Shown: positions 51,777-59,855, counted from the stretch's first letter. The stretch: 64,000 nucleotides of DNA from Acutalibacteraceae bacterium (GCA_045605605.1 JAZUQH010000049.1:12799-76798); one strand, 5' to 3'. Notes: generated by a model from the sequence alone, not told the origin. Program-made: numbers and translations.

Positions 51777-51811
51777 AATATATAATGCTTTTAAAAATAA
51801 AATCTTTCGAG

Positions 51812-51841
51812 TTTTTAGCTTGGGCAGACAAGTGAAATAAA
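51812..51841 (+). repeat. 30-nt direct repeat, copy B
   Basis: See copy A at 47791-47820. Confidence 0.8.
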
Positions 51842-51852
51842 ATAAATCCCCC

Positions 51853-51927
51853 ATACGCCGCAGCGTATTTCATAGCGTTGGATATTTCATATGCGGTAGC
51901 ATATTTCACAAATCCCGTCAGGGATTT
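51853..51927. repeat. array of four short hairpins each followed by (A)TTTCAY
   Basis: Four units occur. The first is ATACGC-CGCA-GCGTAT (51853-51868). The second is a degenerate unit at about 51872-51886. The third is ATATGC-GGTA-GCATAT (51889-51904). The fourth is AAATCCC-GTCA-GGGATTT (51910-51927). Each is trailed by TTTCAT or TTTCAC. Confidence 0.6.
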
Positions 51928-51942
51928 ATTTCATTGAAAAAG

Positions 51943-51968
51943 GCACCGACAAAGTCGATGCTTTTTTT
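51943..51968. terminator. bidirectional terminator downstream of the 133-aa gene
   Basis: GCACCGAC-AAA-GTCGATGC followed by T7. An A-run on the other side supports termination of the minus-strand operon. Confidence 0.6.
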
Positions 51969-52037
51969 CTGGAAAGGTCGCACAAATTCGATGCCATTTG
52001 AATTTTTGACCTATGTGTTCAAACCCATACAGATTTT

Positions 52038-52439
52038 TCATTTTTTGGATTTAAGCGCTTTTATAACTTTTTTACACAAAACTAACTCGCTTGTGAAATT
52101 TGAGCGTGCCCTAATTGTTTTGCCATCTATGTTCGTTTCAACAATTTTCTTGTGTCGCTTTTTTAACCTTTTATAATAATTTTTAATCAAAGGAATGAAA
52201 CGAACATCCTTTAATTTTTCAATGACCCAAAGATAAGGAATACCATAATAATCTTTTTCTTCTTCGAAAAGTTCAAGAAACCATTCATCAATTAATGATT
52301 TTTCTTTATCAGAGAGGTTATCAAACTCTATAGCAGCATACTCCGCCGAACGCCCCATAGAAATACCATAAGTTTCGGGAGAAAAAGCATCGTAAAATAT
52401 TTTAAACTCTTTTGAAAGAGCATCAAAATCAAATGTCAT
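52038..52439 (-). CDS. hypothetical protein (133 aa, acidic N-terminal part, basic tail), no recognised domain
   Basis: The ORF starts with an ATGA overlap (52439-52436) onto the upstream four-helix-bundle gene. Confidence 0.6.
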   Translation of the reverse strand: MTFDFDALSKEFKIFYDAFSPETYGISMGRSAEYAAIEFDNLSDKEKSLIDEWFLELFEEEKDYYGIPYLWVIEKLKDVRFIPLIKNYYKRLKKRHKKIVETNIDGKTIRARSNFTSELVLCKKVIKALKSKK

Positions 52440-52786
52440 TTTGAAGTCTCCTTTGCAGTATTTAATGATGCTATTAACATTCTTTTTATTTCTTCTGCAA
52501 GTGAAAGCAAACTATCAAAATCATAATCAATTAAACTTGTTCTTTTTAAAAGTTTAAGCCAATAAATACTTTCGCCTGTCTCTTTAAGGGAAATATGTAA
52601 TTTAGAGATGAAATCAGCTTTGCTGTTACCATAAACAGCTTCATTTATGTTTGCTCCAACACTGGTGGCAGAGCGTAGTAATTGTTTTGCAATAGTTGTA
52701 TCTTTTCTTGTTTTAGAAAATGCCTCATAAAATAAAACAATTTGTGTTGAAAATTCAAGTGATTTTTCAAGTAATGGACTGTTCAT
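52436..52786 (-). CDS. four-helix-bundle protein (23S rRNA intervening-sequence protein / Avd-like family)
   Basis: QLLRSATSVGANINEA...SKADFISKLHISLKETGESIYWLKLL is the family signature. The start is placed at MNSPLLEK (52786), behind AGGTG. Confidence 0.8.
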   Translation of the reverse strand: MNSPLLEKSLEFSTQIVLFYEAFSKTRKDTTIAKQLLRSATSVGANINEAVYGNSKADFISKLHISLKETGESIYWLKLLKRTSLIDYDFDSLLSLAEEIKRMLIASLNTAKETSK

Positions 52787-52984
52787 TATGTTCACCTCTA
52801 AATGAATTATATCATAATTCACTCTTTAAATCAACGCTTTGCGTAGCAAAGCACCTTTTCTCTTATTTCTTCTCTCTTATCTTTTATCTGGAAACGACAA
52901 TTTTAGAGAAGAGAGAAGAATGAAAAGAGAAAAGTTAAAAGAACAAAAAGAAACGACAATCTTCTTGTCGAAAATTGTCGTTTC

Positions 52985-53007
52985 TTTTTGGCTGGGGAAT
53001 AGGGATT
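52985..53007 (-). repeat. displaced copy of the tRNA-Gln 3' end (23-nt exact direct repeat of 53341-53363)
   Basis: TTTTTGGCTGGGGAATAGGGATT is identical at both sites. On the minus strand it is followed by its own strong terminator hairpin (52947-52987). Confidence 0.85.
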
Positions 53008-53306
53008 TTCCGCGCACTACCGTGCGTTATCGCCTCGCTTACGCTCGTTGCCCACGTCGGCGAAAACAACCATTTAGGTTGTTTTCTTCCGCTATCGCTC
53101 CCTCCTTGTTCGAATTGGAATTCCCCTATTTTTATTTGCCATTATCCAATTCTTAACGGGATACTCTGCGCCCCGTGATTTTTCGACTGCTCCGAGCAGT
53201 TACGAAAAATCTGCGTTGCTCGAGACTTCACAGTCTGCAAATGCTATCGCGCATTTGCAGCTGCTTCGCCGAACCCTCCGGGTTCGCATCCCTATGACAC
53301 AGACAA

Positions 53307-53345
53307 GAAAAAACACAACACACCCAAAGGTGTGTTGTGTTTTTT
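53307..53345. terminator. bidirectional terminator at the tRNA-Gln 3' end
   Basis: AACACAACACACC-CAAA-GGTGTGTTGTGTT, a 13-bp perfect hairpin flanked by A- and T-runs. Confidence 0.8.
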
Positions 53346-53418
53346 GGCTGGGGAATAGGGATTCGAACCCCAACAAACAGAGTCAGAGTCTGTCGTGCTA
53401 CCGTTACACAATTCCCCA
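53345..53418 (-). tRNA. tRNA-Gln (anticodon CTG), CCA encoded
   Basis: Hand-folded 74-nt cloverleaf: acceptor TGGGGAA/TTCCCCA, anticodon stem ACAGA/TCTGT with loop CTCTGAC, T-arm TGGGG-TTCGAAT-CCCTA, discriminator G, then CCA. Confidence 0.9.
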
Positions 53419-53440: not shown

Positions 53441-53469
53441 ATTATAACCACTTTCTATCAAATTGTCAA
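53441..53469 (-). promoter_or_regulatory. consensus sigma-A promoter of tRNA-Gln
   Basis: On the minus strand TTGACA (53469-53464) is followed by a 17-nt spacer and TATAAT (53446-53441), about 20 nt upstream of the tRNA 5' end. Confidence 0.7.
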
Positions 53470-58430: not shown

Positions 58431-58575
58431 GAGTACACTTTAAAAATTCTTCTTAGCTTAGTACGACTCGCTCGGTGGCAACGCCGCCGACACGCACCCG
58501 CCCTTTCAAACAGTCCACCGGACTATTTGAATTTGTAAGCAAACCGGGCTTTTCGAGTCTCTCCATCAATATCTA

Positions 58576-58616: not shown

Positions 58617-58707
58617 TGGCGGAGATGGAGAGACTCGAACTCTCGCGCCGGTTACCCGACCTACGCCCTTAGCAGGGGCGCCTCTTCACCAACTTGAGTA
58701 CATCTCC
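58617..58707 (-). tRNA. tRNA-Ser (anticodon GCT), class II with long variable arm, CCA encoded
   Basis: Hand fold of 91 nt: acceptor GGAGATG/CATCTCC, anticodon arm CGCCC-CTGCTAA-GGGCG, T-arm GAGAG-TTCGAGT-CTCTC. Confidence 0.9.
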
Positions 58708-58890
58708 GTATTGATAAAGTATCTATTAATTTATTAAATTTTTAAGCAATAATACTTCAGGGGTTCATCGGCTTCGTGCCCCCTTGCGGTTACCCAAAAT
58801 TTTATTTCGCTTGGAGCGCGATAAAATTTTGACCGCGGCGCCAACAAATCCTCGCTTCACTGTCCACCGGACACGCTCGGATGTGTTGCC

Positions 58891-58928
58891 CTTCACCAAC
58901 TTGAGTACATCTCCGTATTGATAAAGTA
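58891..58928 (-). pseudogene. duplicated 5' fragment of tRNA-Ser(GCT) (nt 1-24 plus 14 nt of upstream flank)
   Basis: The 38-nt string CTTCACCAACTTGAGTACATCTCCGTATTGATAAAGTA is identical at 58684-58721 and 58891-58928. Confidence 0.8.
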
Positions 58929-58951
58929 AATATTACTTATTGATTTTAAAA

Positions 58952-59312: not shown

Positions 59313-59855
59313 ATGCAAAAAAAATATTCGTCCCCTCTTTTTAAAATAGTGTTCACGGGAATACTTATTGCTATGAATATTGTTTTAGAAAGATTTTTAG
59401 CCTATTCCGTCTGGAATCAAACTATAAGCCTAGGCTTTATAACCGTGGCCTTTGCCGCCTCGTTTTTAGGTATTCCTTATGCTATCGCCGTAGCGGGACT
59501 GGGTGACCTTATAGGCTCACTGCTTTTCCCCTTTGGCACGTATTTTGTCGGCTTTACCATTACTAATTGCCTCTATGCATTTATAACAGCTATCTTCATT
59601 TATAAAAATGCAACAGCCTTAAAAGCAACACTCAGTGTTATAATAAATAAGCTTGTTTGCTCACTTACTCTTAACACTATCTGGATATCTTTGCTGTATC
59701 GCGGAGGAATAGATGCCTTCCCTGCCGTATTCATTTCAAGAATTCCACAGCTTGTGTTGATGACGGTTATAGAAATAGCCGTTTTGATTCTTCTTTTTTC
59801 AAGAAAGAGCAAAGTAAGAATTCTTCTCGATAAAAATATGAAAAGAATAGTATAA
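59313..59855 (+). CDS. folT: folate-family ECF transporter S component
   Basis: 180 aa with 5-6 TM segments, directly behind a THF riboswitch. Confidence 0.8.
   Translation: MQKKYSSPLFKIVFTGILIAMNIVLERFLAYSVWNQTISLGFITVAFAASFLGIPYAIAVAGLGDLIGSLLFPFGTYFVGFTITNCLYAFITAIFIYKNATALKATLSVIINKLVCSLTLNTIWISLLYRGGIDAFPAVFISRIPQLVLMTVIEIAVLILLFSRKSKVRILLDKNMKRIV

Follow-up and report, generated by a model that had tools for sequence, protein, structure and literature searches.

Two tandem units, probably of the tRNA-linked repeat type, behind a tRNA-Gln gene of an Acutalibacteraceae bacterium

Introduction

Stable-RNA genes of Escherichia coli K-12 are followed by tRNA-linked repeats (TLRs), of which 22 are present at ten loci, and whose hallmark is a segment of 18-19 bp with complete identity to the 3' terminus of whichever tRNA or rRNA gene lies upstream (PMC8144298). 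They have been known since 1978 (Egan & Landy 1978 and Rudd 1999, both as cited in PMC8144298). Those behind the 5S rRNA genes, RrA/B/F, lie between two terminators and are produced when the first of these is read through, and the function of the E. coli TLRs is not known (PMC8144298). In this work a 64,000-nt stretch of DNA from an Acutalibacteraceae bacterium (GCA_045605605.1, JAZUQH010000049.1:12799-76798; the window) was analysed, with emphasis on a hairpin-dense, non-coding block behind its tRNA-Gln(CTG) gene. Region 53005-53344 of this block probably consists of two tandem units, termed module B and module A in that order, of an element resembling the TLRs and the RtT units of E. coli.

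Results and discussion

Organisation of the tRNA-Gln(CTG) locus

The tRNA-Gln(CTG) gene (53345-53418, minus strand, 59.9 bits) has an encoded CCA end and is preceded by a promoter, TTGACA-17-TATAAT, that matches at 12 of 12 positions (53441-53469, minus). In the promoter scan this site (53469->53441) was the only promoter-like sequence on the minus strand upstream of the block. The G+C content is about 0.5 across 52950-53350 against about 0.3 in the surroundings. The 23-mer TTTTTGGCTGGGGAATAGGGATT occurs exactly twice, at 52985-53007 and 53341-53363, whereas none was found in 100 shuffles even when three mismatches were allowed. On the tRNA strand the repeat reads AATCCCTATTCCCCAGCCA followed by AAAA, with AATCCCTATTCCCCAGCCA being the last 19 nt of tRNA-Gln from A58 of the T-loop to CCA76. 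Each copy has a terminator after it. The first, T1 (53308-53345, minus, running 53345->53308), contains the hairpin 53312-53341 and consists of a 17-bp stem followed by a T run, with an A run on the opposite side that makes it bidirectional in form. It is unrelated to the second, T2 (52944-52990, minus, running 52990->52944), which contains the hairpin 52947-52987 and is the first part of a separate IVS-protein cassette rather than of a module.

The 356-bp unit holds two unrelated modules of about 100-140 nt, B then A, both on the tRNA strand. Module B (53154-53295, minus) is a unit with a tRNA-derived frame and a multi-helix RNA fold, as indicated by covariation and by a score of 153.7 bits (C49:65952-66093) with R2, a covariance model of module B. 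Its left frame (53280-53295, minus) repeats tRNA positions 51-66 in inverted orientation, reading ATAGGGATGCGAACCC on the tRNA strand, with a match at 15 of 16 positions, and falls within an inverted pair, I1, of 38 nt and 76% complementarity. The junction hairpin CGAACCC-GGA-GGGTTCG (53270-53286, minus) links the inverted T-stem 5' half with tRNA positions 51-57 copied in direct orientation; directly after the TTCG of this hairpin, module B begins. The other helices of the module lie at 53177-53211 and 53235-53260. Its tail is decayed, leaving ATCCCGT at 53156-53162 with neither the acceptor strand nor CCA.

An AT-rich linker (53131-53155, minus) separates module B from module A. The left frame of module A, ATAGGGGAATTCCAATTCGAAC (53108-53129, minus), is composed of the inverted acceptor 3' strand (GGGGAAT) and the inverted T-loop (ATTCGAAC), with its T-stem part mutated, and can close a 7-bp acceptor-like stem with 52993-52999. 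Within this frame, AATTCCCC at 53119-53126 had been regarded in a preliminary description of the block as a repeat of the tRNA 5' acceptor strand. The copy is real, but an independent copy of the tRNA 5' end was rejected, as the segment corresponds to the acceptor 3' strand in reverse complement; it resembles the 5' strand because the two strands pair in the stem, such that the reverse complement of one equals the other. The core of module A (53005-53107, minus; 113.2 bits with the corresponding covariance model, R1) has four helices, including a 10-bp helix at 53062-53086 and a helix at 53013-53026, and carries the conserved single-stranded motifs AAGGAGGGAGCG, CGCCGACGTGGGCAACGAGCG and GCGAGGCGATA. 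The final 19 nt of tRNA-Gln, A58 to CCA76, then recur as a direct copy at 52989-53007 on the minus strand; this copy is either the displaced original tRNA tail or the tail of the unit.

Much of this anatomy had been anticipated in the preliminary description. The exact search and the terminator scan bore out the duplicated 23-mer, with its second copy forming the tRNA-Gln 3' end, and a different minus-strand terminator after each copy; the inverted T-arm copy was recovered at the same 15 of 16 positions; and the listed hairpins were all real and could be assigned to modules A and B, T1, T2 or the IVS cassette. In agreement with that description, the search for open reading frames (ORFs) found no credible one in the block, whether of an integrase, a remnant of one or any other protein.

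Comparison with the E. coli units

The tyrT-tyrV-rttR units of E. coli MG1655 read GGGGAAGG-ATGAGAAG-CTTC-GAC-CAAGG-TTCGA-core-AATCCTTCCCCCACCACCA (L073, 1286700-1287540), that is, the inverted acceptor/T-stem strand, an altered inverted T-loop and a hairpin with the T-stem 5' half, followed by TTCG, the core and a 19-nt tail. Module B reads inverted T-stem, ATGAGAAC, hairpin, TTCG, core and tail, with the parts in the same order. In both the E. coli RtT and module B the inverted T-loop is altered to ATGAGAAC where ATTCGAAC would be expected, and CTCGAGC ... GCGCAG..GAGTA is located just ahead of the tRNA tail. Further shared features are the protein-less character of the units, their length of about 100-180 nt, their location in the trailers of stable-RNA genes between two terminators, and the possibility of tandem units. 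With respect to the TLR hallmark, the 19 nt at 52989-53007 are an exact copy of tRNA-Gln positions 58-76, and the units lie in the trailer of the tRNA on the same strand between T1 and T2.

The units differ from TLR/RtT in that the cores are unlike those of E. coli and restricted in lineage: of 150 other genera of the family, R1 found module A in 13, and of 299 further Clostridia genomes in only 2. Module A is without the direct T-stem 5' half, and the host genome has no tpr-like ORF. Titration of CsrA by a small RNA, an idea put forward for E. coli RrA/B/F, was ruled out in this host because CsrA (PF02599) is absent from its genome, where the positive controls responded.

A dispersed family behind tRNA and tmRNA genes

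The host assembly (1.97 Mb, 39.9% G+C, 55 contigs) was searched with 53008-53340 as the query, a check proposed in the preliminary description, and pieces of the query were found dispersed beside other tRNA genes and the transfer-messenger RNA (tmRNA) gene. Query positions 43-106 recur beside tRNA-Leu(CAA) (95%) and tRNA-Glu (89%), positions 21-60 beside tmRNA, and positions 152-268 beside tRNA-Gln(TTG) (78%). The loci share a layout that on the tRNA strand consists of the tRNA, an A run, terminator 1 and a short AT-rich spacer, then an inverted copy of the T-loop/T-stem 3' strand of the local tRNA, a G+C-rich core, a direct repeat of local tRNA sequence from about position 58 through CCA, and terminator 2. 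Tail duplications and/or inverted T-arm copies of the local type were detected by script at 10 of 38 genes (37 tRNA genes and tmRNA), namely Met, Arg(CCG), tmRNA, Pro(GGG), Glu, Leu(CAA), Tyr, Gln(CTG), Ser(GCT) and Gln(TTG).

The cores fall into at least four types. Type A has the signature AAGGAGGGAGCG...GCGAGGCGATAG-hairpin-GGAAAA, type A' begins with AAGGGCGGTTTGC... and has the right half of type A, type B is recognised by GCGAAGCAGC...GCGCAGAGTA, and type C by ACGACCTCCAAACT...GATAGCCGGAGAAGA. Cores are 78-95% identical across loci of different tRNAs, while the frames differ. These elements, located behind about a quarter of the tRNA and tmRNA genes of the host, are probably a gut-Clostridia counterpart of the E. 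coli RtT.

At the DNA level, modules were found in many species of the genus, with nearly all copies behind tRNA genes, the hosts being Arg(TCT), Arg(ACG), Ser(CGA), Ser(GGA), Gln(CTG), Met, Tyr and Gly(TCC). Over genus and family the hosts comprise Arg, Ser, Gln, Met, Tyr, Gly, Ala, Leu, Pro, Thr, Trp and tmRNA genes. Homologous modules accompany at least 12 different tRNA species as well as tmRNA, and every copy has the tail of the tRNA it follows. Of 150 other genera of the family, R2 gave matches in 6; one of the two R1 matches in other Clostridia is located 67 nt after tRNA-Trp. Among the loci examined, 36 of 46 R1 matches are downstream of a tRNA or tmRNA gene on the same strand, and the orientation relative to the tRNA is fixed in all 36 of these tRNA-linked copies. 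The gap from tRNA to module A is mostly 51-73 nt, or about 215-257 nt where the module is the second unit.

The frames follow the local tRNA closely. The inverted copy is 8-18 nt long and always fits the local tRNA, including the T-loop variants TTCAAGT and TTCGATT, and the direct copy is most often exactly 19 nt, its length being 18-21 nt in the majority of related copies. All junctions are in the T-loop, at position 54 or 57/58, and a second terminator follows each unit. Some copies duplicate the terminator, and some loci are arrays of different module subtypes. The distribution of the copies indicates that the family moves between tRNA and tmRNA gene ends.

Direct repeats from the T-loop to the 3' end of a tRNA are the classic signature of the attachment sites attL and attR of islands and prophages that integrate into tRNA genes (T-loop sublocation), and in those sites, as in integrase-less cis-mobilizable elements (CIMEs), the insert restores the tRNA and displaces the old tail. 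The same signature would be left by a tyrosine-integrase scar of the CIME type, produced by an island that entered the T-loop of tRNA-Gln, restored the tRNA by a tail copy of its own and then shrank to 333 bp, and the insert does carry a terminator of its own. Such a scar is nevertheless highly improbable. The block contains neither an integrase nor any other credible ORF, and in contrast to att/CIME structures the family has no recombinase, inserts of 100-350 bp, an inverted copy and a conserved RNA fold. One module family occurs with many tRNA identities and a locally matched tail; the cores are shared among different tRNAs while the frames are local, and therefore a fixed attP cannot explain the modules. 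A single attP would be insufficient for modules that stand behind at least 12 tRNA species and tmRNA with the tail of each. In addition, their size of always about 100-140 nt and their conserved RNA-type covariation are unlike random deletion remnants, and no module match was present among 50,697 phage or 72,556 plasmid records, in which no vector was identified.

Variant arrangements were observed at several tRNA genes. As claimed in the preliminary description, the same architecture is found at tRNA-Ser(GCT) in the window, where a weak module-A-type unit (58447-58551, minus, 30.8 bits with R1) lies behind the gene and has both a duplicated terminator and an inverted T-arm copy that is perfect over 16 nt. 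On the upstream side of the gene (58684-58929, minus), a 38-nt duplication of the tRNA 5' end and leader frames another G+C-rich core with a GAGCG...GCGAGG motif. A 5'-type arrangement is also found at tRNA-Gln(TTG), on host contig C35 (C35:28460-28744, L003) and in genome G003 (L115). There, a copy from the leader to position 57 is followed by module B and positions 61-68, then by a perfect palindromic junction of CCTGCCAC abutting GTGGCAGG, and finally by the leader and a complete tRNA. Mutations have altered the anticodon region of the broken copy in the host genome; G003 retains it intact. In L027 (G002:C46, locus ~1450-1650) the module-A unit behind tRNA-Ser(GGA) is split by about 200 nt of AT-rich nested hairpins, inserted between GCGAGGCGATAA and the last helix, a nested insertion of another small repeat.

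Discrete gains between species

The sequence of tRNA-Gln(CTG) is identical across all relatives examined, and the syntenic loci come from metagenome-assembled genomes of gut and rumen Acutalibacteraceae. Filled and empty loci were compared between species. No module is present behind the syntenic or orthologous tRNA-Gln(CTG) gene in seven species (L023, L026, L028, L029, L030, L032 and L033), whereas in six others (L013, L014, L016, L022, L031 and L076) module A or A' is present in one to several units, and the window carries B and A. L031 has the successive units A', A and A', each with a copy of the same terminator, and its inverted tail copy extends as far as TGGC. In L012 and L024 the tail is duplicated together with the terminator. 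An exact-protein lookup of the neighbouring EamA gene, aimed at other strains, found no record.

The comparison of relatives, suggested in the preliminary description, yielded seven loci lacking the insert, and the gradual decay of a tandem tRNA gene that the same description gave as the contrary outcome was not what the species displayed. The loci behind tRNA-Gln(CTG) are indicative of discrete gains and not gradual decay. On this comparison, the 356 bp behave as a discrete insert, which supplies the tRNA with T1 and a new tail and displaces the old tail distally. The integrative remnant of 356 bp proposed earlier thus stands as a discrete insert with a new tail and terminator, although not as an integrase or CIME att scar.

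Decay of a tandem tRNA-Gln gene, or of its 3' third, would make the hairpins leftovers and attribute the family resemblance to descent from tRNA. Direct copies of tRNA positions 51-57 and of positions from 58 on do flank module B, as expected had it come to lie in the T-loop of a partial copy, and the whole 5' part of a second copy is kept at tRNA-Gln(TTG) on host contig C35 and at tRNA-Ser(GCT) in the window (58684-58929). However, the cores are unlike tRNA and gave no match there with ARAGORN or Rfam, their identity of 78-95% holds between loci of different tRNAs whose frames differ, and presence or absence is discrete between species. Decay is a very unlikely explanation on these grounds.

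RNA-type fold and strand

The sense-strand fold of 52985-53307 has a z of -6.0 relative to shuffles. Pair counts were taken on model-fitted alignments, which lean towards structure, and in the 46-sequence alignment of module A 95.5% of cells are paired compared with 74.6% in shuffles. Double changes were found in 17 of 19 pairs of module A, and all slid controls collapse to 32-50%. The alignment has 47 G-U/U-G cells against 2 A-C/C-A cells, or 27 against 1 once a conserved U-G pair is left out. For module B (11 copies) the corresponding counts are 17 and 3, with compensatory changes in nearly every pair. The small hairpins of module A have GTAA, GCAA or GGAA-type (GNRA-type) loops on the tRNA strand only, and in some copies longer helices take their place. 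The G-U excess, the loops and the covariation fit a fold selected on the tRNA strand and suggest an RNA. As the only promoter on the tRNA strand is that of tRNA-Gln itself, transcription would need read-through of T1. The preliminary description had proposed an Rfam and covariation check; covariation proved strong in modules A and B, while Rfam returned no family match to the block, and at permissive thresholds the region and the module-B loci gave only tRNA and chance matches.

A hairpin repeat acting at the DNA level, similar to repetitive extragenic palindromic (REP) sequences or miniature inverted-repeat transposable elements (MITEs), would have no RNA function and would occupy a tolerant site, and an enzyme of the host or of a helper might mobilise it in the form of single-stranded DNA. 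Selfish repeats typically show the insertion polymorphism, tandem arrays and mosaic left and right halves seen here, several further types of repeat accumulate behind the same tRNAs, and even the E. coli TLRs are without a known function. A fold selected on one strand is, by contrast, what the predominance of G-U over A-C (47:2 and 17:3) and the GNRA-type loops fit, and the orientation is fixed in 36 of 36 tRNA-linked copies, although single-stranded DNA of the same strand would give the same bias. A purely DNA-level repeat is considered unlikely.

Proposed processing and origin of the units

The strong tRNA promoter would drive transcription, with a fraction of transcripts reading through T1. 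The inverted and direct tRNA pieces could then pair and close the module with a helix bearing a single-stranded NCCA tail, which would mimic the acceptor/T-arm end of a tRNA. By analogy with what has been reported for E. coli RtT and RrA/B/F, tRNA end-processing enzymes could excise and stabilise a small RNA.

With regard to origin, the direct-inverted-direct order of the tRNA 3' third may represent a small inverted triplication. Snap-back/template switching at short palindromes is a model discussed for inverted triplications (PMC4689423), and such switching at the terminator and the TTCGAA T-arm palindromes could build the arrangement, with the module core copied in at the T-loop junction. 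The likeness consists in the order of direct, inverted and direct copies and in junctions at two natural palindromes, terminator and T-arm. The units differ from inverted triplications in their scale of tens of bases rather than kilobases, and in the foreign structured core that is always present at the T-loop junction. Palindromic junctions, some of them perfect, include the CCTGCCAC and GTGGCAGG pair on host contig C35, TTTTGGTGGGAGATGG after T1 and T1 followed by TTGGTGGGAGATGG in L104, and TTTTTGGC in L031. Retroelement mobility (by a retron, a group II intron or SINE-like retroposition) with a resident reverse transcriptase was rejected, as the reverse transcriptase family PF00078 is absent from the host genome (98.8% complete) and from most carriers, among them G006, G007, G009, G010, G015 and G019.

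Several points weigh against a TLR/RtT-like element. The Rfam RtT model RF00391 (gathering score 45 bits) gave no match at E <= 10 in the window and five module-B loci, in a run where four E. coli units scored 133-137 bits. R2 in turn ranks the same four E. coli units top, in register and on the correct strand, but their scores are no more than 4-6 bits (E 0.2-0.7) and are not taken as evidence of homology between module B and RtT. The closing helix is imperfect in the window, being only 5 bp in module B and without a CCA tail. We infer the transcription of the units, the read-through of a strong T1 and the processing from the sequence, and the one line of evidence for an origin by template switching is the anatomy of the junctions. 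The analysis identified no dedicated mobility enzyme, the hairpins may act at the DNA level, and the pair counts carry the lean of the alignments noted above. In terms of architecture, the block is of the same kind as RtT; in terms of sequence family, it is not a member. The second guess of the preliminary description, a tRNA-derived structured element of a kind left unnamed, was the better one, and its named relative is the E. coli TLR/RtT.

A broader reading is doubtful when taken with all of its details. TLR-type modules, RtT included, would be widespread, protein-less, self-targeting RNA genes, in which the antisense and sense T-arm copies form a built-in guide and the RNA or single-stranded DNA homes to position 57/58 of the T-loop. 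The targets would be tRNA and tmRNA genes, and only host replication and repair functions would be used. The tRNA tail and terminator would be renewed on insertion, and the tRNA-like end of the transcript would hijack tRNA processing.

Finding this architecture in uncultured gut Clostridia, built around unrelated cores, makes a subject for comparative work of what had been a curiosity of E. coli. Also evident here are a clear RNA-type covariation, the insertion polymorphism between species, the tandem arrays of subtypes and tmRNA as a target. Shared across phyla are the T-loop junctions at 54 or 57/58, the 19-nt tail, the ATGAGAAC motif and the two terminators. Separating these shared parts from the lineage-specific cores offers handles on the processing-mimic idea and on the copying mechanism. 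For annotation, TLR-type duplications are easily taken for the att sites of prophages or islands.

The IVS-protein cassette and other tRNA-trailing repeats

Immediately distal to module A lies an IVS-protein cassette of 1,021 bp (51970-52988, minus). Starting with T2, it contains a CT/AG palindrome (52856-52934), a hairpin (52836-52852), a promoter (52806-52834, minus), a gene for a four-helix-bundle 'IVS' protein (52436-52786, minus; PF05635, TIGR02436), a 133-amino-acid ORF of no family (52038-52439, minus) and, at its end, a hairpin resembling a T-arm, ATGTAGGGGTTCGAACACAT. A congeneric species (L103) has the cassette at 97% identity, directly after the CCA of tRNA-Arg(CCG), between this tRNA and its own terminator with a module-C unit. 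Copies of 86-88% identity follow tRNA-Arg(CCG) (L105), tRNA-Arg(ACG) (L106) and tRNA-Leu(GAG) (L107), and a second copy in the host genome, of 82% identity, is on contig C31 beside tRNA-Arg(ACG). No recognisable transposase was found in the cassette, which looks like a separate mobile element targeting the CCA ends of tRNAs. The locus as a whole is a stack of successive tRNA-end insertions.

Because T2, the palindrome and the hairpin travel with the cassette to other tRNAs, 52823-52990 is not part of the module element; the preliminary description had treated 52823-53370 as one block, and its lower third has to be reassigned to the cassette. The same movement of T2 rules it out as the ancestral terminator of tRNA-Gln. 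The repeat search recovered two occurrences of GAAACGACAAT, at 52891 and 52950, as described earlier. These could be read as the alternative pairings of a terminator/antiterminator switch in a cis-regulatory leader of the downstream IVS gene, and the 3' arm of T2 is indeed repeated 59 nt downstream in the loop of the CT/AG palindrome, an arrangement kept in other species. As an account of the block such a leader is barely credible, since it would concern no more than 52836-52990, a segment carried along to other tRNAs by the IVS cassette, and modules A and B are present at many loci without a downstream IVS gene.

Other repeats were noted in similar positions. Beyond the IVS cassette, the window holds a terminator, GCATCGACTTTGTCGGTGC, followed by GAAAT-containing repeats (51810-51968, minus), with an Rfam Gut-1 match at 51862-51936 that is below threshold (46 bits against a cut-off of 50). 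This GAAAT element, a third kind of tRNA-trailing repeat, is found elsewhere directly after tRNA-Gln(CTG) in G018 (L028), directly after the tRNA-Arg(CCG) module on host contig C23 and directly after tRNA-Tyr in L018. AT-rich hairpin repeats of the form TTCATTATTCATT...AATGAATAATGAA (L004, host C27:140730-140830; L026) recur in several species, both in the vicinity of tRNA genes and upstream of genes of the IVS type. Elsewhere in the window, a tetrahydrofolate (THF) riboswitch (RF01831, 59152-59250, plus, 85.5 bits) is positioned upstream of an ORF at 59313-59855.

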